Source of the DNA: a virus
Length of the DNA stretch: 64,000 bases
Virus record (IMG/VR): IMGVR_UViG_3300036715_000153
Span: 76,395-140,394 of that record
Strand: one strand, 5' to 3'
A program made the translations under genes and the position numbers. The notes beneath the pieces were generated by a model. That model worked only from the letters and a program-made list of their open reading frames with translations. It was not told the DNA's origin and made no database searches. Position 1 is the stretch's first letter; each line of letters begins with the position of its first letter. Shown here piece after piece: positions 37,113 to 60,424 of this stretch.

Positions 37113-37228
37113 AATTAAATAGCATTATTTGAGTGCTTTAATACGATTTTAACGTGTAAAGATGTGTAATCGTGGAAAAACGGCATTTATGCCGTTTTTT
37201 GTGTTTATTAATCAGTGACTTACAACCA

Positions 37229-37399
37229 TCAATTTCCTGTTTGTATAATAGTAACTGGGCCGTGTCCTGCAGTTACATCTTCCCTAAACACTTTACGCTG
37301 AATAGCCACATACTCAACAAAAGTCATCGGTGTTTTCTGTCTAGACTCCAGCGTGCGTACGTAGCTAATATAACCTTCGTTGTAGAATTTGTCGTTCAT
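37229..37399 (-). CDS. 56-aa hypothetical protein with its own promoter
   Basis: AAGGAG RBS; MNDKFYNEGYISYVRTLE...; promoter directly upstream. Confidence 0.65.
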   Translation of the reverse strand: MNDKFYNEGYISYVRTLESRQKTPMTFVEYVAIQRKVFREDVTAGHGPVTIIQTGN

Positions 37400-37428
37400 T
37401 GTGTAATCTCCTTTAAGTTTGTGTAGTG

Positions 37429-37457
37429 ATTATACATTACATTTCAAACAAAGTCAA
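37429..37457 (-). promoter_or_regulatory. Sigma70-type early promoter
   Basis: TTGACT-17 bp-TATAAT. Confidence 0.75.
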
Positions 37458-37502: not shown

Positions 37503-38573
37503 CTAAGCTACGTAGTTCTTTACCATTGTTTGCCAGCCTTCTTGTCCTTCATAAGCTGCACACACCTTTAATGCGTTAACTAGCGTTCTCATGTTAATGC
37601 GGTTTTGCTTACCGCCAGACTCTTGAATAAATTCAAATACTTCTTGTCTGAGCTTATTGCTAAGTTGTAGATTCTCAGGTAACTCGATCTTATTAACGAG
37701 CGAACGCATTACTTCTAGCATCTCGTCTTTCGTAGGATTAATCTCCATAACAAATCCACGAGTACGAATAGCACCATCTGGGTCTAACTTCTTAATACTT
37801 ACGTTTGCTACGAGAATAATCCCGCCTTCGAAGTTAAAGTATCTTGGTAACTGCTCTCCGCCTTCTTCCGGCTCTTCTTGGAAAGCTGGATCGTAATAGT
37901 TACCGCCCTTCTTGTTAAAGCTGATCTTACGAGTCTTACCGGAATCGGTTGCTGCCTTAATCATGTTACGAACTTCTGGGTCATTCATCAGAGTGTCACA
38001 CTCATCAAACAGTATAATCTCTTTGCGGTGGTTGAATAACGTTTCGTATGTTGCTGCGGCAGATCCAGCACCGACTGTCTTAAAGTATCCATCACCATCA
38101 GATAGTCCCGCTGCTCTCATCTCAGACTCTAGGTTATGAGTATTGTGATGTAATACTCCTGCTGCGTCGTAGTAAACATGTTCGTTGCTATCTACAGAAA
38201 TATCATACAGGTCTACAATTTCATCAGAAACAGCAACTTCGGCGACAACCTCTGTAGAATCTTTACCAAGAACTACGTTACCAAACACTAGATTGGATGC
38301 TTTAACTGTGTCGTTTGATTCAGTCACAAACATATGACTGCAACCACAATTCACTACCTTACCGGAGTCGAACGTAACAGTGCAGAGTTTATCTTGTTTG
38401 CGAATAAATCCAGATATTGGTTTGTATCCGGTTGGGGTATTTGTTTCTAGTCCAAGAGATTCTATATTATATAGATAATCCAGTTGGGGTTCGGTAATGT
38501 TATACAGGTCGAGTACCTGTAATTTAATGTCGTTTAAGTTCATAAGCCTCTTCTTTAGCTGTCTGTTGTTCAA
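37503..38573 (-). CDS. Split-intein IntC fused to the AAA+ ATPase C-terminal part (likely start ATG 38543)
   Basis: TPTGYKPI, block B CGCSHMF, DLYDISV, YY..AGVLHHN|THNL..., Walker B IILFDECD, sensor ILVAN, AIRTR. Confidence 0.9.
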   Translation of the reverse strand: MNNRQLKKRLMNLNDIKLQVLDLYNITEPQLDYLYNIESLGLETNTPTGYKPISGFIRKQDKLCTVTFDSGKVVNCGCSHMFVTESNDTVKASNLVFGNVVLGKDSTEVVAEVAVSDEIVDLYDISVDSNEHVYYDAAGVLHHNTHNLESEMRAAGLSDGDGYFKTVGAGSAAATYETLFNHRKEIILFDECDTLMNDPEVRNMIKAATDSGKTRKISFNKKGGNYYDPAFQEEPEEGGEQLPRYFNFEGGIILVANVSIKKLDPDGAIRTRGFVMEINPTKDEMLEVMRSLVNKIELPENLQLSNKLRQEVFEFIQESGGKQNRINMRTLVNALKVCAAYEGQEGWQTMVKNYVA

Positions 38574-38605
38574 TGTATCTTGGCGAGAAATCCCACGTAT
38601 ATCTT

Positions 38606-39496
38606 TTAATTAGATGTGCGTATATCTAATTCGGTGTCTTGGCGTAAACACTTACCTGTTCCGCCGGGGCCCGTAAGCATTAATAGATTAGTTGCACCAG
38701 ACTTAATCAGTCTTACAAATCCACGTAGATGTTGTAGTTGATCTGCGTACGCAACCTTCTCTGCTTCATCTTCTAGATCGTTCGTAGAACCAGGTGTGAT
38801 GTCTTGTTCTTTAGCCATAGACTTAGATACGCGAACTGTTGCACCGCCTGCTGCTTCCAGTGCCTTAGCGTAGTCAATCTTAGACGGGCTGCCGATGAAC
38901 ACTGGGGATTTACCAGACGTATCAAATACAGATGGGTTAGTTTCTACGATTACTTGGAACAGTTTAAACTCTGGACGTCCAAGTGCTAACTTAACTTCTC
39001 GATAACCGATCTTATCTCCAACATTCATCTTAGCTACGTATGCGCGAATGTTGTCTGCGATCATCGAAGACATTTCATTCAATACTTCTGCTTCGGTTAA
39101 CTCAGACTCGTTTACATCGACTGGAACGAAGTCGAACTCTGCTACGCGAGGAGTTTTAAGGATGTCGACGATCTGTGGCAGGATCTTAACGATAGATACG
39201 CTGTGGTCGAATGTAACATCGAACTTAGTATCTTTGTTCTTCCATATAGTAATCGAATCTAGTACATCTTGATTTAATGATTTACCCAGCCAGTTAAACC
39301 GGACACACGAGTCCGTCTTATAAAAGAAACGCACACCTGTAAACGTTTTGCCTGCAACCATAAACGTTTCGTATCCAGGCATACGATGGAAAGTCTGACC
39401 GACTCTTTTAGTTAAATACTTCTGGATTAGTAATGCGACGACGTGAACGTCTTTAGCGTTCACTGCCTCTACTAGGTAGTCACTGTATGATTTCAT
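38606..39496 (-). CDS. AAA+ ATPase N-terminal part with a capsid-targeting-like N-terminus and a 14-aa IntN
   Basis: MKSYSDYLVE...; ends LMLTGPGGTGK|CLRQDTELDIRTSN* (Cys1 at 38650). Confidence 0.88.
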   Translation of the reverse strand: MKSYSDYLVEAVNAKDVHVVALLIQKYLTKRVGQTFHRMPGYETFMVAGKTFTGVRFFYKTDSCVRFNWLGKSLNQDVLDSITIWKNKDTKFDVTFDHSVSIVKILPQIVDILKTPRVAEFDFVPVDVNESELTEAEVLNEMSSMIADNIRAYVAKMNVGDKIGYREVKLALGRPEFKLFQVIVETNPSVFDTSGKSPVFIGSPSKIDYAKALEAAGGATVRVSKSMAKEQDITPGSTNDLEDEAEKVAYADQLQHLRGFVRLIKSGATNLLMLTGPGGTGKCLRQDTELDIRTSN

Positions 39497-39518
39497 GTTG
39501 GATAGGTGTTGTGTAAAA

Positions 39519-41000
39519 TTATAATTTAGTGTAATTTGAAAAAGACATTAAGCTAGACTCATTCATTTTTGTTTTAGCAAGATCCCAAATATGTTTAGCT
39601 TGCGCATCAGTGGTCTTACTTGGAAGATATTTAGCAAATGACGTGTAATCTCCATCACTAACAAACTTACGAATCTTAGTACCAGAAATCCCAGAAACAT
39701 CATCGTCAGAGTCAGGATCACGCTCGCCTGCAGACACCACCTTAAAGCCATTAAGATTAATAGAAGTTTTTGGATTACCATTGTTCAAATATACCTTTAT
39801 CTTTGATTCGAATTCCGATACTCTATCTGACCCGACTACGAGAGTAACATCTGTATAACCCTCATCTGCTAATTTCATAAGTGCAGTGAACACAGTCGTA
39901 GGTGTGTCTTGTTTAGTATATATTACATCACCAAATAAACTAGAAAGGAACTTCGCCTTGTCATCAAACGACAGGGGATTCTTTTTCTTATCGTGCGACT
40001 TACTTAGAAAAACGATTGGAGTGGCGTGTTCTGTCTTTGCAATAGATATAACCTTGTCGATAAGTAACTCATGTCCAGTAGTTGGGATGTTTAGTCTACC
40101 GAACGTTATTACTGCTTTCTTTAATGCTACGCCTTCAGTCAGATGTTTAACGATATCTGCGATAGCACGATTCTTTTCATCGCCCTTGGGGGTATTTACT
40201 TCCCCAGACTTCACACTCACCATAGAAGTAAATACCCCAGCCATACGAGTCTTAGCACGCTGAGTCTTAATCTTAGACTTTACATCTTTGAGAAGATCGT
40301 CGAATGATTGATCTAGGTTATACTTATACAACAATGTTTCTACGTCTTTAAAGTTCTTTGACTTCCATAGAATCTCTCGATCCTTTTGTTTAAACGTACC
40401 AGGCTCGTATGTAACTTTTCTAAGTTGGAGTTCTTGTCCAGAGAGATTGAATTCCCACTCTTGATCTTTGTCCAGCTTAGTCGGAATTTTGATACCCAGA
40501 GAGGCGAACAATGTTTTGACGGGAGTCTCGACAGTAGCAACTTTAACTAATCCGAGCACGATACCTTGTACTTCTGCAGGAAGATCGAGGAACCTACCCT
40601 TAAAGTGTGCCTCTTCTTTATCTAGCGCACACATGTTATCTATCTGAGCCGAGTAACCTAACTTCTTATCGTGATAGCGAATAGTGACCAACTCACCCGT
40701 ATTACCGGTACGCTTACCGGCATGTTTATCTGATGTAAAGGGCTCGATGACAGAATCTGGCATTGCCTCGAAGAACTTAACTAGGGCTAGTTTAAGTGCC
40801 TTCTTGTCGGAGTATCCATCGAAGTGTACGATGATGTCGATGTCGCCGAACGAATCTTTATCTGGATTAGAGTTATACGAACCGGATGGCTTGAACGATA
40901 CAAATCCGGGAAACTTCGATATAATCTTTTCGTAAGACGCAAGGAACTGTTTGAAATGTTCTCTCGATTTTACTCTGTCTGCCCCAGTAGAACCCGACAT
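39519..41000 (-). CDS. Pol-beta-superfamily nucleotidyltransferase fused to an HxGH-type (cytidylyltransferase/NMNAT-like) domain
   Basis: N-domain SGS...GDIDI...QIDNM; C-domain ITFGRLN.PT.GH, K.NPL, VVGSDRV.EF, SAGERDPD, ISGTK.R. Confidence 0.8.
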   Translation of the reverse strand: MSGSTGADRVKSREHFKQFLASYEKIISKFPGFVSFKPSGSYNSNPDKDSFGDIDIIVHFDGYSDKKALKLALVKFFEAMPDSVIEPFTSDKHAGKRTGNTGELVTIRYHDKKLGYSAQIDNMCALDKEEAHFKGRFLDLPAEVQGIVLGLVKVATVETPVKTLFASLGIKIPTKLDKDQEWEFNLSGQELQLRKVTYEPGTFKQKDREILWKSKNFKDVETLLYKYNLDQSFDDLLKDVKSKIKTQRAKTRMAGVFTSMVSVKSGEVNTPKGDEKNRAIADIVKHLTEGVALKKAVITFGRLNIPTTGHELLIDKVISIAKTEHATPIVFLSKSHDKKKNPLSFDDKAKFLSSLFGDVIYTKQDTPTTVFTALMKLADEGYTDVTLVVGSDRVSEFESKIKVYLNNGNPKTSINLNGFKVVSAGERDPDSDDDVSGISGTKIRKFVSDGDYTSFAKYLPSKTTDAQAKHIWDLAKTKMNESSLMSFSNYTKL

Positions 41001-41297
41001 TTACGCTTTACCGTTCCACTTTGAATATCCTTCATCGGACAGATCGTGTTTAAATACGCGATTCACAGGGTATGCAGATATAGTGCCGTCCTTAAGTTCT
41101 ACGTGAATCATCGTAGCACCGATCTTCTTTACTTTACCGACTATAGTTTGACCTACTGTAGTTCCTGGTACGCGGACATCGTCACCGACCTCTGGCTTGT
41201 AGACTACCTTCTTTTCGAATGCTTCTTGTAATTTTACAGATTTTGTCGGCTCATGTCCGAGGTACTCATCACCCAAAAACTCTTTAAAACTTTTCAT
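41001..41297 (-). CDS. Small SH3/KOW-like protein with a capsid-targeting-like N-terminus
   Basis: MKSFKEFL; VGDDVRV...GKVKKI...IHVELKDG beta barrel pattern. Confidence 0.65.
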   Translation of the reverse strand: MKSFKEFLGDEYLGHEPTKSVKLQEAFEKKVVYKPEVGDDVRVPGTTVGQTIVGKVKKIGATMIHVELKDGTISAYPVNRVFKHDLSDEGYSKWNGKA

Positions 41298-41917
41298 TGT
41301 AACCCCTTAATAGATCCGTCGTGTAGTGCTTCGTATGCGTAGAAGTTAATATCTGGGTATTTGTCTTTCATTCCCTGAAATGCTGTTAGATTAGCCATTG
41401 CGTCATCAAACAGTCGAACGCTACCATAACTACCGTTATCTATGTATTTAGTTATAATCTCTACCTTACGCTCGGCACTCGATCCACTACCTAGATTACC
41501 CGCTCGCTCTACGTACACTTTGTCTATATCAAATCCGTGTTCTTTAAATGTATTAAGGAATAGATCTTTGTTATCGAAGTCGGCTCGAGCAGTAATGATG
41601 ATCATCTTACTATTAGGCATAGACTCTATTCCCTTTAGGATTGCCTTAGCCCTATTCATCATCTTGACGATTACCTTAGATGACTCGTTAAACTTCTTAG
41701 CATCTCTGAATTCGCCAAAGTCATACGACTCGCCATCTTTCAATTTGTAAATATTGAATTCACGATTAGTTAATCTCTTTACAACTTTACCGTCCTTCAT
41801 AACAGAAATCATTGCGAAGGTATGAAATAGGGTATCGTCGATATCAAATATGGTGAGACCATCTATACCATGTTTGGCTGATGCCTTTTCTGAGATAAAC
41901 TGTTTAAACGATTTCAT
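41294..41917 (-). CDS. HAD-superfamily phosphatase with a capsid-targeting-like N-terminus
   Basis: MKSFKQFISE; FDIDDTL (motif I), ITAR (II), K (III), LFDD...N (IV). Confidence 0.85.
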   Translation of the reverse strand: MKSFKQFISEKASAKHGIDGLTIFDIDDTLFHTFAMISVMKDGKVVKRLTNREFNIYKLKDGESYDFGEFRDAKKFNESSKVIVKMMNRAKAILKGIESMPNSKMIIITARADFDNKDLFLNTFKEHGFDIDKVYVERAGNLGSGSSAERKVEIITKYIDNGSYGSVRLFDDAMANLTAFQGMKDKYPDINFYAYEALHDGSIKGLQ

Positions 41918-42891
41918 TTTAGTAATTCTGAATCGGGCGGAAGGAACTTTCCGGTGAGCCCTAGCTTAGCTTTACGCTTTTTCCATTCAGCTTGGAGATT
42001 GTCGGGAACGTCGCATCTTGTACTGTCTAATATCTTAAGATAGATATCTACCCAAGCATCGTACTTGTCTTTAGGTAGCTTCTTAATAATATCGAACAGT
42101 TTATAATAATTTTGTCTGTCTGCTGTAGTTATCTTTGTATGTAGCGCGTCTGATAATACTTTCAATGCCTTGTCTGGATCGGTTGCAATAACCTCACCAG
42201 TTTCCTTATCTTTAACTCCAGACACGTGATTAAATGACATACCTGCTACTTGGAATAACGCCAACATCCCTTGGGTAGCGTGTAAACCTTTCACGTTAGA
42301 ATCTTCGGGGTACACGTCACCATAATAGCTAAACTTCAACCAGTTTATGTTACCTGCCATCCAGTCGATCTGAACCCCGATGCCTATATCTTTACCTTCA
42401 GGACTTATCTGCGGAAATAAACCAAAGATATTACCTGCAGTGACTTTATTTTCATCGCAATATAGTCTAGGGGCATGTGCATTAATATATACAGTCAGAC
42501 ATTTTAAGAACGCCTTAAATGATAGTTGTTCTGGCGTCGACGTCTTAGCCCGCTTCTCAAGTTTAGCAAATTCTGCATGTACGTCTTTGGGGTCTATCCC
42601 CCACTCAGCAATAGACTTATCAGACATAGTTGCATCTAGTAAAGATGATGTATCTATTCCTAAGTCGATGTCTCCACTGTACGCCTTTTTACCAACTGAA
42701 CCGAGTGGATGAAAGTGTTTGTCATTGAATATCGAGGCCTTCTTGGGGAAGATTTGTTTCAGTTCCTTGAAGTATGCGTCTAACGTCGGCTTAATGTATT
42801 CTAGCTTAATGGAGGCAGTCTTACCCTTGAAGACGTTTCCGCCCTCAGATAGTTGTTCTGTTGTGATGAATTGTAGATATGATTTTATCAT
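41914..42891 (-). CDS. Pol-beta-superfamily nucleotidyltransferase with a capsid-targeting-like N-terminus
   Basis: MIKSYLQFI..EQLSE|GGN; LGSVGKK..SGDIDL, third Asp in VQIDWM. Confidence 0.8.
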   Translation of the reverse strand: MIKSYLQFITTEQLSEGGNVFKGKTASIKLEYIKPTLDAYFKELKQIFPKKASIFNDKHFHPLGSVGKKAYSGDIDLGIDTSSLLDATMSDKSIAEWGIDPKDVHAEFAKLEKRAKTSTPEQLSFKAFLKCLTVYINAHAPRLYCDENKVTAGNIFGLFPQISPEGKDIGIGVQIDWMAGNINWLKFSYYGDVYPEDSNVKGLHATQGMLALFQVAGMSFNHVSGVKDKETGEVIATDPDKALKVLSDALHTKITTADRQNYYKLFDIIKKLPKDKYDAWVDIYLKILDSTRCDVPDNLQAEWKKRKAKLGLTGKFLPPDSELLK

Positions 42892-43961
42892 TTTGAGTTT
42901 ACCTGCATGTCGTATAAATCTGCGCCCTTTTCAATATAGTTCCGGACGTACTGGGTTTTGCTTTCTAACTTCATTCTGATTCGTAGCAGATCGACAACCT
43001 TACCACTTGCATCTTTAGAAGTAATTAATACCTGAGGATACTTTCCATCGCTCTTAACGACAGCAACTATCTTATTCGGGAACACTAATGTCTTAGGATT
43101 ATAAACCTTAGAAACTTTATTTAAATGTACTAATTCTATGTCCTCTGTTCCTATCATGAAGTGAACGATAGCGGATTTTAAAGTCTTTCCGGATGTTTTT
43201 TCTGACGAATCGTTGTAACCCGGTTCCCCCGATATAGCTTGTGCTAGTTCTTCGTAGCTGTATTTTATCGCAGAGTTAATATCGCCTGCTGCATAAAACT
43301 CGGTATATTTTTTCATAACGGAAGGTGGAATAGTAAACCCAAACAGATCCCAAAGAACTTCTTGCTTTGCTGGCTCTGCCCCACCGATCTGCCCAAACTG
43401 CTTAACTACACCTGCTTTCAGAGATACCGATAAGTTTAATTCCGTTTTACCGTTTGGGCCAGACACCTTAACATACACGTCTTGTTTGGTTCCGGTTTGA
43501 TTGCCGATCCCGTCTGCTACGAAATCCATAACATTGACTTGGTTATTCGTATAGAACAACATTGCAGTAGATTTTAGGTTGGCATCGTTTACATAGTGTA
43601 GCGCTGCATCTGTAATAGGCTTGATCCTTTTATTGGAAAATATATCTGGACTGAACAGTGCATCGAGGTTACTCTTAGCTAGTCGAATCGTTAGGTTAAT
43701 TTCATCCTTGATATGTGGATTTTCGTTTGGTGCTTGCCATGTAGCCATAACGGTGTCATTAGTCGTTCTACCTGCTGCGGCAGTCACCGTTTTCATAATG
43801 TCTTTGATGTCTTGCAATACGATATCGCTGTCTCTTTTCATAAACCGCGCAACACATGCTAAGATAAATATGCCTTCAGCAACGTCTCCGGCGTTAAACT
43901 TCGTTATATTCCCAGACACTTCCTCAAGTAAAAACTCTTTATAGCTTAACATTTTTTCCAT
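42888..43961 (-). CDS. Hypothetical protein, possible PD-(D/E)xK nuclease fold, with a capsid-targeting-like N-terminus (likely start 43952)
   Basis: MLSYKEFLLEE; GDVAEG helix, TKQDVYV...SVSLK pattern typical of restriction-endonuclease-like folds. Confidence 0.55.
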   Translation of the reverse strand: MEKMLSYKEFLLEEVSGNITKFNAGDVAEGIFILACVARFMKRDSDIVLQDIKDIMKTVTAAAGRTTNDTVMATWQAPNENPHIKDEINLTIRLAKSNLDALFSPDIFSNKRIKPITDAALHYVNDANLKSTAMLFYTNNQVNVMDFVADGIGNQTGTKQDVYVKVSGPNGKTELNLSVSLKAGVVKQFGQIGGAEPAKQEVLWDLFGFTIPPSVMKKYTEFYAAGDINSAIKYSYEELAQAISGEPGYNDSSEKTSGKTLKSAIVHFMIGTEDIELVHLNKVSKVYNPKTLVFPNKIVAVVKSDGKYPQVLITSKDASGKVVDLLRIRMKLESKTQYVRNYIEKGADLYDMQVNSK

Positions 43962-44971
43962 TTCCCGAATTCAAGCATAGCACGGGCACCACGAAAGGTC
44001 CATGCGTCTAATTCTAATTTAGTTCCCGCGCACACTGCATCATTTAGGTCTTTATGTGCGAACGAGTCGGGAAATATAACTACATTGAAGCCATGCTCGA
44101 TCGCAGTCTTTAACTTCTTTACCCCGACAGGTGCGCGTGGTTCATTATCGAAGACCAATACAAGATTCTCTTTGGGTAACAGATATGCTGCTCGCTCAAG
44201 CGATGCGTCTGCCGTAGCAACACCATTAGGCACCATCATGGAATCTATCGGCCCTTCTGTCACATATATTGGGCTAGATTCGTCGACCAGCTCTAACCCA
44301 AACAGTTTCAGTTCGTCCTCAACCTTGGTAGTGAGATACCGTATTTTGGGATTCGCATCTAGAGAACGACCCTGCATGAATACCAGCTTACCTTCTTTAT
44401 TCCTAAACGGAAACACAACGCGGCAATCGTCGGGTAGCATACTTGTATCTATATCGTAGCCAAACTCTGCTGACATTTCCTTGACCGACGATTTGTAGCC
44501 CTCGGTGTACATGATACGATTCCATTGATCTTTTGGAATCATTCTACTCTCTAGATACTTTACCGCTGTGTGGTTACTGGGAAGCTCTGTAACGGTATAG
44601 AAGAAGTCCGCGATTGTTTTCTTCGAAGGTAGTAATACTTTGCTCGACTTGACCGTCGCATAATCAAATTCCTCTTTAGGTTTAGATACGGATAGCGATT
44701 CTAGTTGGTATTCGGCGTACAGTCCAGGATCGATTTCCTTTATGAACTTTGACAGGTGCATAGACGCTCCGCAGTTAAAGCAACCATATATAAGGTTACC
44801 ACCGCGTTCAAATATTGTACCTCGAGTTTTTGTTTTATTACTTTGAGAGTCGCCGCACAAAGGACACGACATAACCCAATTAGAATTTCCCTTATTTTTG
44901 AAATTTCTAATATACGAAAGTCTGTTGGCAAACATAATTTGAATATATAGCGGAATTCCTTTACTTAACAT
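43946..44971 (-). CDS. gp61: DNA primase
   Basis: CPLCGDS...CFNCG Zn finger, QGRSL, RYLT, VTEGPIDS, DNEPR, KDLND. Confidence 0.96.
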   Translation of the reverse strand: MLSKGIPLYIQIMFANRLSYIRNFKNKGNSNWVMSCPLCGDSQSNKTKTRGTIFERGGNLIYGCFNCGASMHLSKFIKEIDPGLYAEYQLESLSVSKPKEEFDYATVKSSKVLLPSKKTIADFFYTVTELPSNHTAVKYLESRMIPKDQWNRIMYTEGYKSSVKEMSAEFGYDIDTSMLPDDCRVVFPFRNKEGKLVFMQGRSLDANPKIRYLTTKVEDELKLFGLELVDESSPIYVTEGPIDSMMVPNGVATADASLERAAYLLPKENLVLVFDNEPRAPVGVKKLKTAIEHGFNVVIFPDSFAHKDLNDAVCAGTKLELDAWTFRGARAMLEFGKWKKC

Positions 44972-51349: not shown

Positions 51350-51718
51350 CTATGCTAGCAATTGTACATTCTTTAACGTTGATATTGGGCTATTACACCA
51401 ACCCGCAATAAACTCTGATATAGATCCATACTTACCTATAGAAACCACATACTCTGAATTCTCTTCGGTGTTATATGCGACCTGATATCTCTTAGGTTCT
51501 TCAGTTTCTCTCATCGCCTCAGACTTCTCTGCATAGTTTGTGTGATAATAGTGTTTACTGTCAACAAACCCAACAGGATATCCATCAATGTCTGTTAGGA
51601 TATCAGCGAACATTGCGTCATTTTCATTTCCAGCTGGCTCGAACACGAGACCTTTTAGCTTGTATGTTTTACCAGGGAATTCACTCAATGTATATGTTTT
51701 GATGGTATCGAATTTCAT
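51350..51718 (-). CDS. Hypothetical protein
   Basis: GGAG RBS supplied by the upstream repeat. Confidence 0.65.
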   Translation of the reverse strand: MKFDTIKTYTLSEFPGKTYKLKGLVFEPAGNENDAMFADILTDIDGYPVGFVDSKHYYHTNYAEKSEAMRETEEPKRYQVAYNTEENSEYVVSIGKYGSISEFIAGWCNSPISTLKNVQLLA

Positions 51719-51945
51719 ATTATGCTCCGCTCCGCTCCGCTCCGCTCCGCTCCGCTTATTACGTGACCGATTATATTACCATTAGAATCAAATAGTGCAA
51801 CTATTGATGAGGGAGAGGTACGACCTCCACGATATGCATCTATGCATTGTCTGTAAACATACGCCATTTCCTCATAAGGATTATCTTCAAATGAAACATT
51901 GTCTGTTGTAAATTCGACTGTGATTTTAGCCATAATTAATACCAC
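51715..51945 (-). CDS. Hypothetical protein whose C-terminus is encoded by the pentamer repeat
   Basis: AAGGAG RBS; ends ISGAERSGAERSII. Confidence 0.6.
   Translation of the reverse strand: MVLIMAKITVEFTTDNVSFEDNPYEEMAYVYRQCIDAYRGGRTSPSSIVALFDSNGNIIGHVISGAERSGAERSII
51724..51756. repeat. (GCTCC)6 GCT microsatellite, (GGAGC)n on the coding strand
   Basis: Perfect GC-rich pentamer tandem in an AT-rich context. Confidence 0.95.
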
Positions 51946-52163
51946 TCCTTAGTCACATAGTATGGTGCTTTAAATTCTTCCTTCTTTAACTTCAATAGCT
52001 CGTTTGCTTCCTTAACATCCTTACACTGTTTTGAAAACACCGTCGAGTATTTAAGAACCACAGTTACATACCAATTCTTCATATTATAATCCTCTGTTTA
52101 ATTAAATACATCGTGTGAATGAATCTAATCAAACAGGGCTACATTGCGTAGCCCAATGATAGA

Positions 52164-52547
52164 TTAGCCTTTGACCTTCTTGCCCATCTTTACTACAGTA
52201 ACACCAGCTGGCGTTGCTTTAGCTTTCTTGGCAGCCAATTTTTCTTCTAGCTTCTTTAGTGTATCTGCTTGCTTTGCACCCTTTGCTGCTTGCTTTGCAT
52301 CTTTCGCAGCCTTGCGAGCATCTGCTGCTACAGACTTTTCGTACTGTTTAAGTTGACGTGCTGCCTCACGTTGTTTTGATGCTTCGGCGCGAGCAGCCTT
52401 AGCTTCGATCCGTTCGGCTTTTTTAATAAGGCGTTCTTGTTTAGTTGCTGCTTTGGTTTCTGCTTTAGCTTTACGCTCTTTTGCGATAAGTGCTGATAGT
52501 TCTGCACGAGCACGGGCGATTTGTTCTTTGGTAGTCATTGTGGTCAT
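52164..52547 (-). CDS. Lys/Ala-rich basic protein (histone-like or coiled coil)
   Basis: Composition; own promoter upstream and a hairpin GGGCTAC-ATTGC-GTAGCCC just downstream. Confidence 0.75.
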   Translation of the reverse strand: MTTMTTKEQIARARAELSALIAKERKAKAETKAATKQERLIKKAERIEAKAARAEASKQREAARQLKQYEKSVAADARKAAKDAKQAAKGAKQADTLKKLEEKLAAKKAKATPAGVTVVKMGKKVKG

Positions 52548-52621
52548 AGTGTATTTTCCTATTTAAGTTTAAAATTAATATTACATTTTAGAACTGTGTG
52601 TTTCGTTTAGTTCATGTATAG

Positions 52622-52649
52622 ATTATACAGTATTATACAAGAAAGTCAA
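52622..52649 (-). promoter_or_regulatory. Sigma70-type early promoter (IHF-consensus site at 52670-52682)
   Basis: TTGACT-16 bp-TATAAT. Confidence 0.7.
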
Positions 52650-52765
52650 CCTAATCAGCAACTTTCTTGTAAGTCATTGATTATCTTAGAAGCTGTAAAA
52701 TGTAGTTATGCATCTGGATAGTTGTCTACCGATTGAATCTGTTTTGAACATTAGTTGGTCACACG

Positions 52766-53068
52766 TTATCCAATAAACGTATCTGGCGATCCTACTGCAA
52801 TTTTGTCTGAACACGATACTGTATCTGTTACCCTGGATGGCGACAGATTGTCGATTACTACAGACGTCGATCCTTTAGTAGATACAGAGTCGTGATTCTG
52901 TATCGGCGGGAATGGTAGTCGGTGGAAGTCAAACGGATCACCAACTCTACACGCTCCCTTGCCATTGATGATAGTCTTCTCAGATCCTTTAAGACATTTC
53001 GTAGGAGGGAACCCAGGCGGGTGTCCTTCTGTTAGATCGTCTACTCTCGCAGCAGCTAATGCGCTCAT
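52766..53068 (-). CDS. PAAR spike-tip protein (gp5.4-like)
   Basis: AAARV.D...GH..FPP, ING..ACRVGD...H, H....GS.SV, R..D...C...GS...FIG. Confidence 0.9.
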   Translation of the reverse strand: MSALAAARVDDLTEGHPPGFPPTKCLKGSEKTIINGKGACRVGDPFDFHRLPFPPIQNHDSVSTKGSTSVVIDNLSPSRVTDTVSCSDKIAVGSPDTFIG

Positions 53069-55164: not shown

Positions 55165-55998
55165 TCAGGAGACCTTAATGCGCATTGATTGCGCAACAAC
55201 GGCATCACCAGATACTTGTGCACTACCAGATACTCGTGCACGTCTATATACTCGTGCATTACCAGATACTTGTGCATTACCATAAACTCGCGCATCATCA
55301 AATACTTGAGCATTTTCATATACTTGTGCATTAACAGATACTTGTGCATTATCATATACTCGTGCATTACCAGATACTTGAGCATTAACAGATACTTGTG
55401 CATTACAATATACTTGTGCATTATCATATACTCGCGCATCATCAAATACTTGAGCATTACCAAATACTACTGCATTGCCATATACTCGCACATAACCATA
55501 TACTTTTGCATCTCCATATACTCGCGAATTGTCAGATACTTTTGCACCACCATATACTCGTACATTACCATATACTTGTGCATTATCAGATACTCGAGCA
55601 TAACCATATACTTGTGCATTGTCATATACCCGTGCTCTACAATATACTAGCGTATCATCATACACTCGTGCATTTTCAAATACTTGTGCATAATCATACA
55701 CTCGCGCGTTACCAAATACTTGGGTATTATCATATACTTGTGCATTAACAGATACTTGTGCATTATCATAAACTCGCGCGTTACCATATACTCGTGCATT
55801 TTCATATACTCGTGCATTATCATATACTAGAGCATTATCGTATACCCAGCATAAACCATCTTGACATAGGTTCGACTCTTTCTCGACCCAACCACCCAGA
55901 TCGCCAGCTTTAACATCAGCAAAATCTTTAAGTGCTTGAATTTGGTATAGAGTTACACCATATACCGTCTTGGTTGTTTCGGTTAGTTTATATTTCAT
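55165..55998 (-). CDS. Hexapeptide-repeat (left-handed beta-helix) protein, paralog 6
   Basis: MKYKLTETTK..YG.TLYQIQALKDF.DVKAGDLGGW.EKE.NL head plus (V-Y/S/F-G/D-N-A-R/Q)n. Confidence 0.88.
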   Translation of the reverse strand: MKYKLTETTKTVYGVTLYQIQALKDFADVKAGDLGGWVEKESNLCQDGLCWVYDNALVYDNARVYENARVYGNARVYDNAQVSVNAQVYDNTQVFGNARVYDYAQVFENARVYDDTLVYCRARVYDNAQVYGYARVSDNAQVYGNVRVYGGAKVSDNSRVYGDAKVYGYVRVYGNAVVFGNAQVFDDARVYDNAQVYCNAQVSVNAQVSGNARVYDNAQVSVNAQVYENAQVFDDARVYGNAQVSGNARVYRRARVSGSAQVSGDAVVAQSMRIKVS

Positions 55999-56019
55999 TA
56001 TATTCTCTTTATTACGATA

Positions 56020-57036
56020 TCAAAATACGTCTCCGTCACATACACCAACTACAAATAACTTACGACATCTTATCTTTCCTTCTTGCACAGTAATAATATC
56101 GTCGATATGAATTCGACACATTATACGAACTTTACCGCATTTATTGTTCCAATAATTGGCATTAGACACATGTAGACCCGCTGCACAAGATAATTCGGCT
56201 TCTTCTGGATTATCAGCAACCGCTTCTTCACCAACTACATACTTGAACTTTGGATCATGTAACGAACTCAAGTCTGAATTAACATGTTTGAAGCAAATAA
56301 TGCATCTACCGACAGAGACTAGGTTTGTTTGTGCTTCAATATTTTGAAGAATATTTTCTCGTTTGGTTAGGTCTTTAGTTGTATATGAGAACATAATGTA
56401 CATTGATTGTGCAATAACGGCATCACCATACACTTGTGCATCACCATATACTTTTGCATCACCATATACTTTTGCATTACAAAATACTCGTGCACAACCA
56501 TATACTCGCGCATTATCATATATTTGTGCATTATCATATATTTGTGCATTACCATATACTTTTGTATTATCATATACTAACACATTGCCATATACTTGTG
56601 AAGTACCAAATACTACTGCACAGTCATATACTCGTGCACTACCAGATACTTGTGCACAGTCATATACTCGTGCCCTACCAGATACTTGAGCATGTCCATA
56701 TACTCGTGCATATCCAGATACATGCGCATCGCTATATACTTTTGTATGACCAAATATATGTGCACTGCCAAATATTAGTGCACTGCCATACACTTGTGCA
56801 CTACCAGATACTTGTGCACTACCAGATACTTCTGCATTTTCATATACTCGCGCATTGCCAGATACTTGTGCATTATTATATACCCAGCATAAACCATCTT
56901 GACTTAGGTTCGACTCTTTCTCAATCCAACCACCCAGGCATCCGGCTTTAACATCGGCAAAATCTTTAAGGGATTGAATTTGGTATAACGTTGCACCATA
57001 GATTTGTTTAGTGGTTTCGGTTAGTTTATATTTCAT
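56020..57036 (-). CDS. Hexapeptide-repeat protein with C-terminal C..GLH / GKIRC domain, paralog 5
   Basis: Same head and repeats plus a ~125-aa C-domain. Confidence 0.88.
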   Translation of the reverse strand: MKYKLTETTKQIYGATLYQIQSLKDFADVKAGCLGGWIEKESNLSQDGLCWVYNNAQVSGNARVYENAEVSGSAQVSGSAQVYGSALIFGSAHIFGHTKVYSDAHVSGYARVYGHAQVSGRARVYDCAQVSGSARVYDCAVVFGTSQVYGNVLVYDNTKVYGNAQIYDNAQIYDNARVYGCARVFCNAKVYGDAKVYGDAQVYGDAVIAQSMYIMFSYTTKDLTKRENILQNIEAQTNLVSVGRCIICFKHVNSDLSSLHDPKFKYVVGEEAVADNPEEAELSCAAGLHVSNANYWNNKCGKVRIMCRIHIDDIITVQEGKIRCRKLFVVGVCDGDVF

Positions 57037-57057
57037 TATATTCTCTTTAATATGGTA

Positions 57058-58146
57058 TCAAAATACGTCACCATCGCATACACCAACTACAAATAACTTG
57101 CGACACCGAATCTTGCCTTGTTGCACAGTGATAATATCATCTAAGTGAACTCTACACATTATAGAATTAGTACCACCGTTACCATTCCAATAACTAGCAT
57201 TAGACACATGAAGTCCAGATGAGCACGATGATTCATCTTCGCTTGGATTATCAGCAACTGCTTCTTCACCAACTACATACTTGAACTTTGAATCGTGTAA
57301 CGAACTTAAGTCTGAATTAACATGTTTGAAGCAAATAATGTTTCCACCAACAGATTTAAGTGAAGTCTGTGACTCAATATTTTGAAGAATATTTTCTCGT
57401 TTAGTTAAGTCTTTAGTTGTATGTGAGAACATAATGTACATTGATTGTGCGACAACGGCATTGCCATATACTTTTGCATTACCAAATACTTCTGCATTAT
57501 TATATACTTTCGCATTATCAGATACTTCTGCGCTATCAGATACCATTGCATTATCATATACTTCTGCCCTACCAGATACTAGAGTATCACCAGATACTAG
57601 AGCATGTCCATATACTCGTGCATGTCCATATACTCGTGCACAACCATATACTTGTGCATTTTCATATACTTGTGTATTGTCAAATACTTGTGCATTTTCA
57701 TATACTTTTGCATTACCATATACTTTTGCATTACAAAATACTCGTACACTACCAGATACTTGTGCATTTTCAAATACTTGTGCATTACCATATACTCGTG
57801 CATTTTCAAATACTCGTGCATTATCATATACTCGTGCTTTTCCATATATTTGTGCACTGTAATATACTCGTGCATCATCATATACTAGCGCATTTTCAAA
57901 TACTTGTGCATTACCATATACTCGTGCATTTTCAAATACTCGTGCATTACCATATACTCGTGCATTTTCAAATACCAGAGCATTATCGTATACCCAGCAT
58001 AAGTCTTCTTGGCTTAGGTTCGTCTCTTTCTCAATCCAACCGCCCAGATCACCAGCTTTAACATCGGCAAATTCTTTAAGTGCTTGAATTTGGTATAAAG
58101 TTACACCATAGATTTGTTTAGTTGTTTCGGTTAGTTTATATTTCAT
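57058..58146 (-). CDS. Hexapeptide-repeat protein with C-terminal C..GLH / GKIRC domain, paralog 4
   Basis: Same head, repeats and C-domain as paralog 5. Confidence 0.88.
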   Translation of the reverse strand: MKYKLTETTKQIYGVTLYQIQALKEFADVKAGDLGGWIEKETNLSQEDLCWVYDNALVFENARVYGNARVFENARVYGNAQVFENALVYDDARVYYSAQIYGKARVYDNARVFENARVYGNAQVFENAQVSGSVRVFCNAKVYGNAKVYENAQVFDNTQVYENAQVYGCARVYGHARVYGHALVSGDTLVSGRAEVYDNAMVSDSAEVSDNAKVYNNAEVFGNAKVYGNAVVAQSMYIMFSHTTKDLTKRENILQNIESQTSLKSVGGNIICFKHVNSDLSSLHDSKFKYVVGEEAVADNPSEDESSCSSGLHVSNASYWNGNGGTNSIMCRVHLDDIITVQQGKIRCRKLFVVGVCDGDVF

Positions 58147-58173
58147 GTTGAAATCTCTTTAGTTGATGTGCTT

Positions 58174-58202
58174 ATTATACAGGAGTTTTTAGGAAATGTC
58201 GA
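58174..58202 (-). promoter_or_regulatory. Duplicated array promoter
   Basis: TCGACA-17 bp-TATAAT; intergenic sequence identical to about 58965-59024. Confidence 0.7.
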
Positions 58203-58208
58203 TACATT

Positions 58209-58970
58209 TTAACCACCAGACACTTGCACATTACCATGCACTTGTTCATAGTCAGATGCTTGCGCATCACCATATACTTGCGCGTTATCATATACTTGCG
58301 CGTTACCATATACTTTTGCATTACAAAATACTCGTGCACTACCATATACCTTTGCATCACCATATACTCGTGCATTACCATATACTCGAGCATTTTCAAA
58401 TATTTGTGCACTGTAATATACTCGTGCATTATCATATACCTCTGCATAACCATATACCTCTGCAAGACCATATACTTGTGCGTTTCCAGATACTTTTGCA
58501 TAACCATATACTTGTGCGTTTCCAGATACTTTTGCATCACCATATACTTCTGCTTTTCCAGATACATGTGTATTGCCATATACTCGTGCAATATCATATA
58601 TTCGTGTATCGCCAAATACTACCGCATTATCATTTACTAGAGCATCGCCATATACTTGTGCATTTCCATATACTTGTGCATTATCATATACTTGTGTATC
58701 GCCATATACTTGTGCATTGCCATATACTCGCGCATCATCATATACTCGTGCACTACCATACACTCGTGCATTACCATATACTTGTGCATCATCATATACT
58801 CGTACATTATCATATACCCAGCATAAGTCTTCTTGGCTTAGGTTCGTCTCTTTCTCAATCCAACCACCAAGGTCACCAGCTTTAACATCGTTAAAATCCT
58901 TGAGTGCTTGAATTTGGTATAGAGTTATACCATAGATTTGTTTAGTGGTTTCGGTTAGTTTATATTTCAT
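58209..58970 (-). CDS. Hexapeptide-repeat protein, paralog 3 (no C-domain)
   Basis: Same head and repeats. Confidence 0.88.
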   Translation of the reverse strand: MKYKLTETTKQIYGITLYQIQALKDFNDVKAGDLGGWIEKETNLSQEDLCWVYDNVRVYDDAQVYGNARVYGSARVYDDARVYGNAQVYGDTQVYDNAQVYGNAQVYGDALVNDNAVVFGDTRIYDIARVYGNTHVSGKAEVYGDAKVSGNAQVYGYAKVSGNAQVYGLAEVYGYAEVYDNARVYYSAQIFENARVYGNARVYGDAKVYGSARVFCNAKVYGNAQVYDNAQVYGDAQASDYEQVHGNVQVSGG

Positions 58971-58997
58971 GTTGAAATCTCTTTAGTTGATGTGCTT

Positions 58998-59026
58998 ATT
59001 ATACAGGAGTTTTTAGGAAATGTCAA
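58998..59026 (-). promoter_or_regulatory. Duplicated array promoter
   Basis: TTGACA-17 bp-TATAAT. Confidence 0.8.
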
Positions 59027-59502
59027 GACTTAAATTGTTTCAATGATTGGCTTGTATATACTTTGGCATGTCCAAATATAAGTGTATTGCCATATACTTG
59101 TACATCGCCATATACTTGCGCATATCCAGATACATGCGCATCGCTATATACTTTTGTATGACCAAATATATGTGCACTGTCGAATATTAGTGCACTGCCA
59201 TACACTTGTGCACTATCAGATACTTGTGCATAACCAGATACTTCTGCATCACCATATACTTTTGCTCTGTCATACACTTGTGCAACATCATACACTCGCG
59301 CATTACCATATACTTGTGCATTATCATACACTCGTGCATTTTCGTATACCCAGCATAAGTCGAGATGACTTAGGTTCGACTCGTTCTCAATCCAACCACC
59401 AAAATCGCCAGCTTTAACATCGGCAAAATCTTTAAGCGCCTGAATTTGATATAAAGTTACACCATAAACATTCTTAGTTGTTTCAGTTAGTTTATATTTC
59501 AT
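59023..59502 (-). CDS. Hexapeptide-repeat protein, paralog 2 (short, no C-domain)
   Basis: ATG at 59502 gives the conserved MKYKLT head. Confidence 0.85.
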   Translation of the reverse strand: MKYKLTETTKNVYGVTLYQIQALKDFADVKAGDFGGWIENESNLSHLDLCWVYENARVYDNAQVYGNARVYDVAQVYDRAKVYGDAEVSGYAQVSDSAQVYGSALIFDSAHIFGHTKVYSDAHVSGYAQVYGDVQVYGNTLIFGHAKVYTSQSLKQFKS

Positions 59503-59524
59503 GTCAGATTCCCTTAATATGATA

Positions 59525-60424
59525 TCAAAATACGACACCGTCACATACACCAACTACAAATAACTTACGACACCGAATCTTGCCTTGTTGCACATCAATA
59601 ATATCATCTAAGTGAACTCGACACATTATTCTAACTTTACCACCGGTACCATTCCAATAATTAGCATTAGACACATATAGACCAGATGATTCAGCTCCTT
59701 TAGGTTTTAAAGCTACTGCTTCTTCGCCAACTACATACTTGAACTTTGAATCATGTAACGAACTTAAGTCCGAATTAACATGCTTAAAACAAATAATGTA
59801 TCCACCAACAGAGACCAGGTTTGTTTGAGCCTCAATCGACTGTAGAATATTTTCTCGTTTGGTTAGGTCTTTAGTTACACCAGAGAACATAATGTGCATT
59901 AATTGAGTAATTACAGCATCACCATATACTAGTGCATCTCCATATACTAGTGCATTGCCAGATACTTTTGCATTACCAAATACTTGTGCGCTACTATATA
60001 CTCGTACAATATCATATACTTTTGCATTTCCATATACTCGCGCACTACCAGAAACTTGCGCATATCCGTATACTCGTGCATTATCATATACTCGAGCATT
60101 TTCAAATACTTGTGCACTGTAATATACTCGTGCATCATCATACACTTGTGCATTATCATATACTCGTGCACTACCATATACTCGCGCCCCACCATATACT
60201 CGCGCATTGTCATATACTCGCGCATTTTCGGATACTTTTGCATCACCAGATACTTGAGCATTATCATATAGCCAACACATTCCATCTTGACTTAGGTTCG
60301 ACTTTTTCTCGATCCAACCACCCAATTCGCCAGCTTCTACATCATTAAAATCTTTAAGCGCCTGAATTTGGTATAAAGTTACACCATATACATTCTTGGT
60401 TGTTTCGGTTAGTCTATATTTCAT
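59525..60424 (-). CDS. Hexapeptide-repeat protein with variant C-domain, paralog 1
   Basis: Same head; C-domain has a deletion and reads SSGLYV where the others have C..GLHV. Confidence 0.88.
   Translation of the reverse strand: MKYRLTETTKNVYGVTLYQIQALKDFNDVEAGELGGWIEKKSNLSQDGMCWLYDNAQVSGDAKVSENARVYDNARVYGGARVYGSARVYDNAQVYDDARVYYSAQVFENARVYDNARVYGYAQVSGSARVYGNAKVYDIVRVYSSAQVFGNAKVSGNALVYGDALVYGDAVITQLMHIMFSGVTKDLTKRENILQSIEAQTNLVSVGGYIICFKHVNSDLSSLHDSKFKYVVGEEAVALKPKGAESSGLYVSNANYWNGTGGKVRIMCRVHLDDIIDVQQGKIRCRKLFVVGVCDGVVF

Follow-up and report, generated by a model that had tools for sequence, protein, structure and literature searches.

Background

The closest described counterparts of the system studied here are the IPI, IPII and IPIII internal proteins and the Alt protein of bacteriophage T4, which enter the phage head by means of a capsid-targeting sequence (CTS), are cut by the prohead protease gp21 and are injected along with the DNA. 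The T4 CTS is the peptide MKTYQEFIAE (PMC8442874), in which residues 4 and 7 serve targeting and residues 8 and 10 serve processing; Alt is processed at both ends (PMC9026906). Many proteins inside the heads of the giant phages phiKZ and SPN3US, enzymes among them, also have propeptides, which are cut off after a short Glu-ending motif (PMC9026906). In this work, we analyzed a cassette of seven genes (A to G) in a 64,000-nucleotide stretch of DNA (the window; positions 76,395 to 140,394 of the IMG/VR virus record IMGVR_UViG_3300036715_000153), which makes up the right-hand end of a record of 140,394 bp with terminal repeats. Five of the genes start with leader peptides resembling the T4 CTS, and we consider it likely that the cassette specifies cargo carried inside the head of a T4-superfamily phage. 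That the encoded proteins dock, are cleaved, stay in the head and are injected, and what activities they have, is inferred here from the genes.

The cassette leaders share with those of T4 IPI, IPII, IPIII and Alt their length and key positions (positions 4 and 7 aromatic, position 8 I/L, position 10 E). The same type of protease and head module, predicted late expression and a tag that is portable to unrelated, fast-evolving cargo are further similarities, and Alt provides a precedent for both enzymatic cargo and two-end processing. In contrast to the T4 internal proteins, the predicted cargo consists mostly of large enzymes rather than small basic proteins, and it includes classes that are new relative to T4: nucleotidyltransferases (NTases) resembling family X DNA polymerases (Pol X), an NTase with a HIGH motif, a HAD phosphatase, a protein with a restriction endonuclease-like fold, and an ATPase. 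The cassette also differs in its putative polyproteins with internal sites, in its additional leader classes (MRIIELLTE, MKLQDLFE↓A and MLLxELF...; here and below, ↓ marks a predicted cleavage or splice junction), in the motif-like C-terminal tail of protein E, in a cargo protein that would be assembled by a split intein, and in its late motif, ACTAAATTA instead of TATAAATA. The giant phages phiKZ and SPN3US, which have a diverged gp21-type protease, differ in their cleavage logo and lineage and have no 10-residue T4-type targeting peptide.

Leader peptides and head genes of the phage

The five N-terminal leaders described in the initial annotation, and the LMSFSNY-like end of E, were recovered in our analysis (Table 1). 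The fit to the T4 position rule is exact for C, F and, when counted from the second Met, A; the leader of B is offset by one residue and has LSE at positions 14-16, and that of D has Glu at position 11 and LQE at positions 23-25. The leader is enriched in the whole-genome gene set (n = 197): the core pattern [FYW]xx[FYW][LIVM]x(1-3)E occurs at the N-terminus of 7 of the 197 predicted genes, whereas its frequency at internal positions predicts 0.26 (Poisson P ~1e-8). One of the seven, a DNA polymerase, is probably a chance match, and A gives one further match if counted from its second Met. Two more matches lie outside the window, in a 243-aa gene between the portal and protease genes and in a 94-aa gene. 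Codons differ among the leaders; therefore they are not a DNA repeat, and selection acts on the peptide.

The T4-superfamily head genes are located elsewhere in the record and follow the T4 order: portal, the 243-aa gene, two small genes, gp21-family prohead protease, scaffold and gp23-type major capsid protein (MCP), with matches to PHROGs 207, 237, 213 and 138. The protease belongs to the Peptidase_S77 (gp21) family (PF03420, E 7.6e-36) and is encoded in the same genome as the cassette. The MCP shows 46% identity to the MCPs of Pelagibacter phage HTVC008M and of cyanomyoviruses, and its N-terminal region contains the sequence ALQE↓AAPT. Because a gp21-family protease and a T4-type head module are both present in this genome, it possesses the apparatus that reads the T4 CTS.

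The three small genes between the portal and protease genes (L005:5596-6963; genome positions 51595-52962) have no database matches. The 243-aa protein starts with MSFKSYLNE, the 107-aa protein starts with MAIVDTVKAILE↓AG, and the third, of 104 aa, is highly basic and has LTE and LNE sites near its N-terminus; these are likely to be core or internal proteins.

Table 1. Features of the cassette in the window (coordinates as window positions)
Feature	Coordinates	Strand	Description
ORF A	42888-43961	-	In-frame ATG at 43961 adds MEK (MEK-MLSYKEFLLEE)
A, from second Met	42888-43952	-	Leader MLSYKEFLLE(E) at 43923-43952, motif beginning at the second Met (43952); restriction endonuclease-like core
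ORF B	41914-42891	-	16-aa leader MIKSYLQFITTEQLSE at 42844-42891, then GGNVF core; Pol-beta-type NTase
ORF C	41294-41917	-	Leader MKSFKQFISE at 41888-41917; HAD-superfamily phosphatase with motifs DIDDT, TAR, K and DD intact
ORF D	41001-41297	-	98 aa; leader MKSFKEFLGDE; first strict LxE is LQE at residues 23-25
ORF E	39519-41000	-	Putative two-domain polyprotein
E-N	40128-41000	-	Residues 1-291; second Pol-beta-type NTase (GS...GDIDI...QID), ends HLTE
E-C	39519-40127	-	Residues 292-493; HIGH-motif cytidylyltransferase-like NTase; CTS-like tail MNE↓SSLMSFSNYTKL at 39522-39557
ORF F	38606-39496	-	N-terminal half of ATPase
F N-extein	38651-39496	-	282 aa; leader MKSYSDYLVE at 39467-39496, further domain, Walker A up to GPGGTGK
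N-intein	38609-38650	-	14 residues, CLRQDTELDIRTSN, then TAA stop
ORF G	37503-38573	-	C-terminal half of ATPase; real start at 38543
G C-intein	38142-38543	-	134 aa, ends ...VLHHN; own AAGAGG ribosome site and ATG; frame differs from F
G C-extein	37503-38141	-	212 aa and stop; remainder of P-loop ATPase, first T completes GKT; Walker B ILFDECD
Late-promoter-type motif	44015-44023	-	ACTAAATTA; inside 3' end of primase gene; 56 nt before first ATG of A, 65 nt before MLSY start
Late-promoter-type motif	39522-39530	-	ACTAAATTA; 28 nt before F start; same spacing as at baseplate, sheath and portal genes
Hairpin	37175-37200		Flanked on either side by A and T runs, as in bidirectional terminators; some 300 nt downstream of the G stop

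Conserved junctions in orthologues of B and E

Homologues of B are numerous in metagenomes (841 at E <= 1e-5), and among cultured phages the only one was found in Flavobacterium phage immuto, where the protein begins directly with MGGNVF. Of 119 close orthologues, 114 carry an N-terminal extension, which belongs to one of at least four unrelated classes (MKSFxxFITE, MRIIELLTE, MLLxELF...LxE and MGGRIDFKGY...LLTE) or comprises extra domains; the other five begin without one. The leader is thus hypervariable among the 114 extended orthologues, and its (L/I/V)-x-E end is almost constant: the residue preceding the invariant GGNVF (P1) is Glu in 109 and Cys in five of them, and the residue two positions before it (P3) is L/I/V in 113. 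The Cys-type junctions (P0004, P0025, P0038, P0039 and P0058; for example, ...LLMC↓GGN and FLTC↓GGN) may be processed by another chemistry or not processed at all.

In 70 of 80 loci the gene after B encodes an E-type NTase, whose sequence always starts with MSG(V/S)(A/T)G. In eight loci, B and E-N form a single ORF of 612-633 residues. At the fusion junctions of the six distinct sequences listed (...NMTE↓SGVAGADR, ...HLGE↓SGSTGADR and ...(R/K)LTE↓SGVAGASR), a protease-type site, (L/M)xE, occupies the place of the start Met. A similar arrangement is observed between the two domains of E, as every fusion of E-N with the cytidylyltransferase has an (L/I)xE site about 10 residues before the FAFGRF core (HLTE↓GVALKK in the window), and stand-alone cytidylyltransferase genes have a leader of their own (MKQYRQFLKE, MKKYRQLVES or MKLIELFENP) or none. 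The N-terminus of E is MSGSTGADR and its C-terminus is ...ESSLMSFSNYTKL; in the closest relatives, the NTase ends with (L/F)GE followed by a CTS-like peptide (SLLSFKGFLNE, SKIMSFSEYY or NFLTFGDYM). From these comparisons, E is best read as a polyprotein. In the initial annotation E was the one gene of the six without the N-terminal motif, and it does lack an N-terminal leader; the fusions with B, the LxE site between the domains and the motif-like C-terminal tail indicate that it is not simply untagged.

The genes that surround B in the 80 related IMG/VR loci include members of at least 13 unrelated protein families with the strict leader, and the leader class, partly also the presence of a leader, co-varies between neighboring genes within one locus. 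The internal-protein loci of T-even phages are polymorphic in a similar way. A gp21-type protease was identified in three of five large B-carrying contigs, including the sole contig that is at least 90% complete; completeness is below 50% for the two that gave no match. Taken together, the gp21-family protease, the T4 head module, the conserved (L/I/V)xE junction and the absence or exchange of leaders in orthologues are in agreement with the proposal that the leaders behave as T4-type capsid-targeting propeptides.

Pairs of B/E-type NTase genes were also observed on five contigs (L039, L044, L062, L070 and L078) that CheckV considers fragments of much larger genomes. Because these include contigs rated as 39% complete at 141 kb and 90% complete at 360 kb, the pair extends into jumbo T4-like phages.

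Predicted cargo proteins

The cassette proteins are poorly covered by family databases. A megablast search of the cassette region against cultured phages gave no match, and neither did a Pfam search of A, B, C, D and F. The NCBIfam and PADLOC searches gave only weak matches below threshold, and no family was assigned except for a weak HAD match for C; among the PADLOC and anti-defence families, no match to a cassette protein was found. Single-sequence and profile searches of PDB sequences with A, B, C, E-N and the ATPase revealed nothing convincing. Structure models were made for A and B with AlphaFold2 (AF2).

The AF2 model of B has a predicted local distance difference test score (pLDDT) of 92, and residues 1-17 remain below 52, and the fold begins at the predicted cut. 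The residues G64, S65, D74, D76 and D176, forming the pattern GS...DID...QID, are invariant. In the structural search, the top nine matches were all family X DNA polymerases (Z 7.4-9.4, 160-188 residues aligned), headed by DNA polymerase beta (Z 9.4) and the Pol X of African swine fever virus (ASFV; Z 9.1, root-mean-square deviation 3.4 A, 163/176 residues) and followed by polymerase lambda, TdT, Tth PolX and polymerase mu; the top 50 Foldseek matches were all polymerase beta. With terminal uridylyl transferases (TUTases), about 100 residues aligned at Z 5-6.8; CD-NTases gave Z 4-5, and no CCA-adding enzyme was present among the 50 structural entries listed. The CCA-adding and CD-NTase folds, named for comparison in the initial annotation, are less well supported for B than family X. 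The alignment covers the palm and thumb of polymerase beta only (chain residues 142-335), the 8-kDa lyase and the fingers (helix-hairpin-helix) being unmatched, and no Pfam or PDB sequence match to family X was obtained. ASFV Pol X (PDB 5hr9), a minimal family X enzyme to whose palm and thumb B aligns, likewise has neither the 8-kDa lyase nor the fingers domain; the GS...DxD...D carboxylate triad is invariant in B. In contrast to family X polymerases, with which it shares 10-15% identity, B has an extra C-terminal helical part and is paired with a second, diverged NTase. On the strength of the model, B may be described as Pol X-like in fold rather than as a demonstrated member of the family.

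The E-N domain has the same order of motifs as B, and three motifs can be aligned; close paralogy of the two was considered and rejected, the profile match being weak (E 1.4e-3, prob 17%). The E-C domain belongs to PHROG 3041 (E 6.5e-52), has the motifs TTGH, of the (H/T)xGH type, and SGISGTKIR, of the C-terminal ISxTxxR type, and is homologous to the virion-associated cytidylyltransferases of cyanomyoviruses. Its score against PF01467 is 19.6 bits in the window, where the cut-off is 21, and 28.8 and 24.6 bits in separate orthologues. The best PDB profile match of E-C is UPF0348 protein MJ0951 (E 4e-5); we take UPF0348 to be the tRNA-modifying TmcAL family.

Protein C has all four HAD motifs (I-IV), the residues D25, D27, T29, T109, K151, D171 and D172 being invariant in nine orthologues. 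Its family matches are weak (PHROG 415, polynucleotide kinase, E 1.4e-4; TIGR01549, E 0.003). The orthologues of C start with MMRSFSEYLSE, with MKFSELILE, with longer extensions beginning with MKLFDFL, or have no leader. The (L/I)xE boundary site is also seen in the HAD and ATPase families. For D, no family match was found in Pfam, PHROGs, NCBIfam or PADLOC.

Protein A, called nuclease-like in the initial annotation, matches PHROG 3560, and its AF2 model (pLDDT 83) resembles the restriction endonucleases HinP1I and MspI (both Z 7.4 over 193-206 residues) and, at a lower score, HhaI (Z 5.2). The Foldseek match to HinP1I has a probability of 0.96 at an E value of 2e-3. Residues 1-17 are disordered (pLDDT <50), and the folded core begins a few residues past the predicted cut. 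The invariant motif of A is D161-X18-S180-x-K182, with Ser at the middle position, compared with the catalytic D...(D/E/Q/N)-x-K of PD-(D/E)xK restriction endonucleases of the HinP1I/MspI type; the HinP1I motif is presumably D-X18-Q-x-K. The ESM Atlas gives a lead in the form of one cluster, 24% of whose members contain RE_HaeIII. A leader-bearing 463-aa protein that precedes B in locus L017 was considered as a relative of A and rejected as unrelated (hhalign prob 0.35%).

An ATPase predicted to be assembled from two genes

The exteins encoded by F and G align end to end with a 510-aa intein-less orthologue, the C-extein corresponding to its residues 296-509. Three hallmarks of a split intein were identified: Cys1 (CLRQDT..., running into a stop codon), the ...HHN↓T junction, and two independently translated genes. 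The half-gene layout of G is common to 17 protein clusters; the C-intein has a weak PF14890 match, G matches PHROG 1250, and PF13191 (AAA_16) is found in homologues. The ATPase therefore appears to be built via a conserved two-gene split intein. Contiguous ATPase orthologues of 476-543 aa start with MKSFKxYLxE, MKLQDLFE↓A or MGTMQFKDYITE. Because these orthologues bear the leader at the N-terminus, the comparison supports the view that the C-terminal half could gain a tag only by splicing, and it agrees with the suggestion in the initial annotation that this untagged half would be packaged only through the intein.

Atypically split phage inteins with very short N-parts include AceL-TerL, GOS-TerL and VidaL. 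The F/G intein is similar to this type in its two genes, in an N-part that corresponds to the first strand only (here 14 residues from Cys), in a C-part that carries the rest and ends with HN followed by Thr, and in its insertion in a P-loop. It differs in that the host protein is another ATPase and in that the untagged C-half would reach the capsid only after splicing; such intein-dependent capsid entry of an untagged half would be a new consequence of this arrangement.

Relatives of the split ATPase (P0145-P0161), all with a very short N-part, use two insertion points in the P-loop, three residues apart. In most of them the intein is inserted at GG↓TGKT (junction HHN↓TGKT), and in the window and P0160 it is inserted at GTGK↓T.

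Gene order and expression signals

The seven ORFs are located directly downstream of a DnaG-type primase gene (43946-44971, minus strand) on the same strand. ATGA overlaps join A to B, B to C and C to D, and E starts directly after D. The late-type motif of this phage is ACTAAAT(T/A)A. The heptamer ACTAAAT has 39 copies in the genome. In 19 cases a start follows at a distance of 28-57 nt, and most of the genes concerned are structural, including those for the MCP, portal, sheath and many baseplate proteins. Both late-motif copies reported near positions 44016 and 39523 in the initial annotation were found (Table 1), and they suggest that the cassette may be expressed late. The T4 late promoter TATAAATA was also considered; with four copies against 7.8 expected, it is not used by this phage.

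A terminator had been proposed to close the unit. A good terminator hairpin does exist and is the only one, but it does not close the unit directly, as about 300 nt and a small ORF (37229-37399) separate it from G. This 56-aa ORF has a near-consensus sigma-70 promoter, TTGACT-17-TATAAT, matching at 11 of 12 positions (window 37229-37457), which suggests that it may be an early gene embedded behind a late unit.

Leader-bearing enzymes in cyanophage virions

The virion proteome of the T4-like cyanophage S-CREM2 comprises 52 proteins detected by mass spectrometry (PMC10665884). A scan of the whole S-CREM2 genome, with every possible start codon considered, found the strict leader on three of about 220 annotated genes only: the S-adenosylmethionine hydrolase gp6 (MKDFDSFLEE), the kinase gp14 (M/VKRFDAFLTE) and the cytidylyltransferase gp154 (MKNFSSFLTE). 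All three enzymes are present in the virion proteome, as is the near-match gp13 (MKDLHSFLTE), and the leader-bearing enzymes were detected with 11-26% coverage. A loose form of the leader expression proved too permissive in S-CREM2 to be informative. The virion-detected "Cas9-like" protein gp12 of S-CREM2 (L010:7704-10313) has the leader-like LRFASFMAE at residues 18-26 of the annotated ORF; perhaps the start has been annotated too far upstream, or perhaps this is an internal tag.

NMNAT-like proteins were reported in the virions of S-CBWM1, S-SZBM1 and S-SCSM1 (PMC10665884). The cytidylyltransferases of S-H38, ACG-2014f, S-SM1 and P-SSM3 follow the pattern M-[KR]-x-F-x-x-F-[LI]-x-E↓A, and that of S-SZBM1 has the shorter form MRFRQFIIE↓A. 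The virion cytidylyltransferases and kinases of cyanomyoviruses (S-CREM2, S-SZBM1, S-SCSM1 and S-CBWM1; PMC10665884) are thus comparable with the cassette proteins, those of S-CREM2 and S-SZBM1 starting with the same leader followed by E↓A. They differ in that the cytidylyltransferase domain of the cassette sits behind an NTase and has no N-terminal leader of its own, and in that the cyanophage papers report detection in virions and leave contamination open. No paper linking the cyanophage virion detections to the CTS was found in the searchable literature.

Proposed route into the capsid and alternative explanations

In the route that we propose, the cassette products would be made late with a short T4-type propeptide, M-K-S/T-F/Y-x-x-F/Y-I/L-x-E, which would dock each protein on the scaffolding core during prohead assembly. 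The gp21-family prohead protease would then cut after (L/I/V)-x-E and free the mature enzymes inside the head, from which they would leave with the DNA. The predicted cargo comprises B with E-N, the cytidylyltransferase/NMNAT-like E-C, C, A, D, and the joined F and G. Protein E may enter as the partner of B and/or through its motif-like C-terminal tail, and cleavage at HLTE would release its two NTases, one of Pol-beta type and one with a HIGH motif. The ATPase would become cargo only once the split intein has linked the N-half, which bears the tag, to the C-half, which does not.

Several points weigh against head-internal cargo. The phage and its close relatives are all uncultured, so that the cassette, unlike the T4 internal proteins, is known from genes alone. 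It is co-directional with the primase gene, and early read-through transcription is possible. The leader of D has LGDE instead of a strict LxE at position 10. The closest orthologues of A have no leader and start at the conserved core, the fold matches of A (Z 7.4) are within the range that chance can give, and a nuclease-fold protein kept beside the genome would need explaining, for example, by DNA modification or inactivity. As the authors of the S-CREM2 study caution, non-structural proteins that are abundant may be carried along when virions are purified (PMC10665884). Finally, Flavobacterium phage immuto has a gp21-type protease, yet its B and E orthologues carry no leader; because of this, packaging appears to be a lineage-specific option that is not required for the enzymes to be useful.

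Two alternatives concern the leader itself. It could bring the proteins into the prohead as core or scaffold accessories that act only in the head, for example on DNA while or after it is packaged, or that are degraded and expelled, rather than being injected as working enzymes: T4 core proteins are mostly fragmented and lost, only the internal proteins, Alt and a few others staying (PMC9026906), and an accessory role would also fit the internal (L/I)xE sites of E, the frequent [LIV]xE in the scaffold and the position of the leader-bearing 243-aa gene within the head module. It is difficult to reconcile with protein cores that are conserved and well folded with intact catalytic residues, with cleavage sites conserved at domain boundaries and not within domains, and with the recovery of leader-bearing enzymes from mature S-CREM2 virions at the coverage given above, and we regard it as improbable. 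The other alternative dissociates the motif from the capsid and assigns it to translation start, folding, stability or host-factor binding of early or middle enzymes. The location of the cassette behind the primase gene on the same strand, the translational coupling of A-B-C-D by ATGA overlaps, the frequency of MK- starts in AT-rich phages, and the leaderless orthologues that function in the protease-bearing phage immuto could all be accommodated in this way. The conserved positions, however, are those mapped for T4 targeting and processing (PMC9026906), and the codons differ between leaders; the final Glu and the L/I/V two residues earlier are kept in more than 95% of the 114 extended B orthologues, the rest of the leader being variable. 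The same site recurs at fusion junctions, late motifs precede A and F, and the leader predicts virion detection in S-CREM2, all of which makes a capsid-independent function very improbable.

The remaining question is the job of the cargo, if it is indeed packaged as we propose. From fold resemblance and gene content, we tentatively suggest that it works on ends or gaps of nucleic acids, in the genome as it comes in or in host DNA, at entry, a possible but far from secure assignment, in which a 3'-phosphatase, a gap-filling polymerase or terminal transferase and a nuclease could act together. The initial annotation instead favored a packaged set that repairs RNA or tRNA ends, rebuilds NAD+ or disturbs nucleotide messengers as a counter-defence; in this reading the set would not act on DNA. 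This would be in line with the weak match of C to a polynucleotide kinase PHROG, with the NMNAT-like annotation of relatives of the HIGH-motif domain and its best PDB profile match to UPF0348, and with the NTase core shared by TUTases and CD-NTases; but B fits family X over palm and thumb at higher scores than either of the latter, the 50 entries listed for it include no CCA-adding enzyme, and no PADLOC or anti-defence family was matched, so that a role of this kind seems unlikely.

Other genes of the record

Two further observations concern regions outside the cassette. In the window, positions 55165-60424 contain six tandem paralogues of 176-362 aa, all starting with MKYKLTETTK(Q/N/T)(I/V)YG(V/A/I)TLYQIQ, which form an expanding gene family. 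Outside the window (G000:C1:15901-19987), the gp43-type DNA polymerase is apparently encoded in two ORFs (327 and 514 aa) separated by a 406-aa ORF with a late-type motif upstream, and this may be another fractured gene.

Implications

A proposal that is broader than head-internal packaging of the cassette, and rather more doubtful, is that a very widespread, uncultured aquatic T4-like lineage, jumbo phages included, carries a conserved, processed Pol X-like NTase pair in its capsid with variable helpers (a phosphatase, a HIGH-motif NTase, a nuclease and an ATPase), injected to heal, fill or extend ends before phage expression. The pair and its helpers would then be a pre-loaded kit for repair or end processing, and the T4 CTS would be a general, swappable address label across the T4 superfamily, including cyanophages. 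If head-internal packaging of the cassette is correct, the CTS mechanism would reach beyond the few small internal proteins of T-even phages and Alt, to which its documentation has been limited so far, and would address proteins to the head generally, in cyanophages and in distantly related T4-like phages of marine and fresh waters. It would provide a simple sequence rule for the prediction of non-structural proteins that travel in the virion, together with a mechanistic account of the recurrent cytidylyltransferases and kinases in cyanophage virion proteomes. The cassette also points to new classes of injected enzymes, including polymerase beta-like NTases conserved in hundreds of uncultured phages, and suggests that some cargo reaches the capsid by way of polyprotein processing or a split intein. 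For phage-based protein delivery, the various leader classes might be developed into orthogonal packaging tags.

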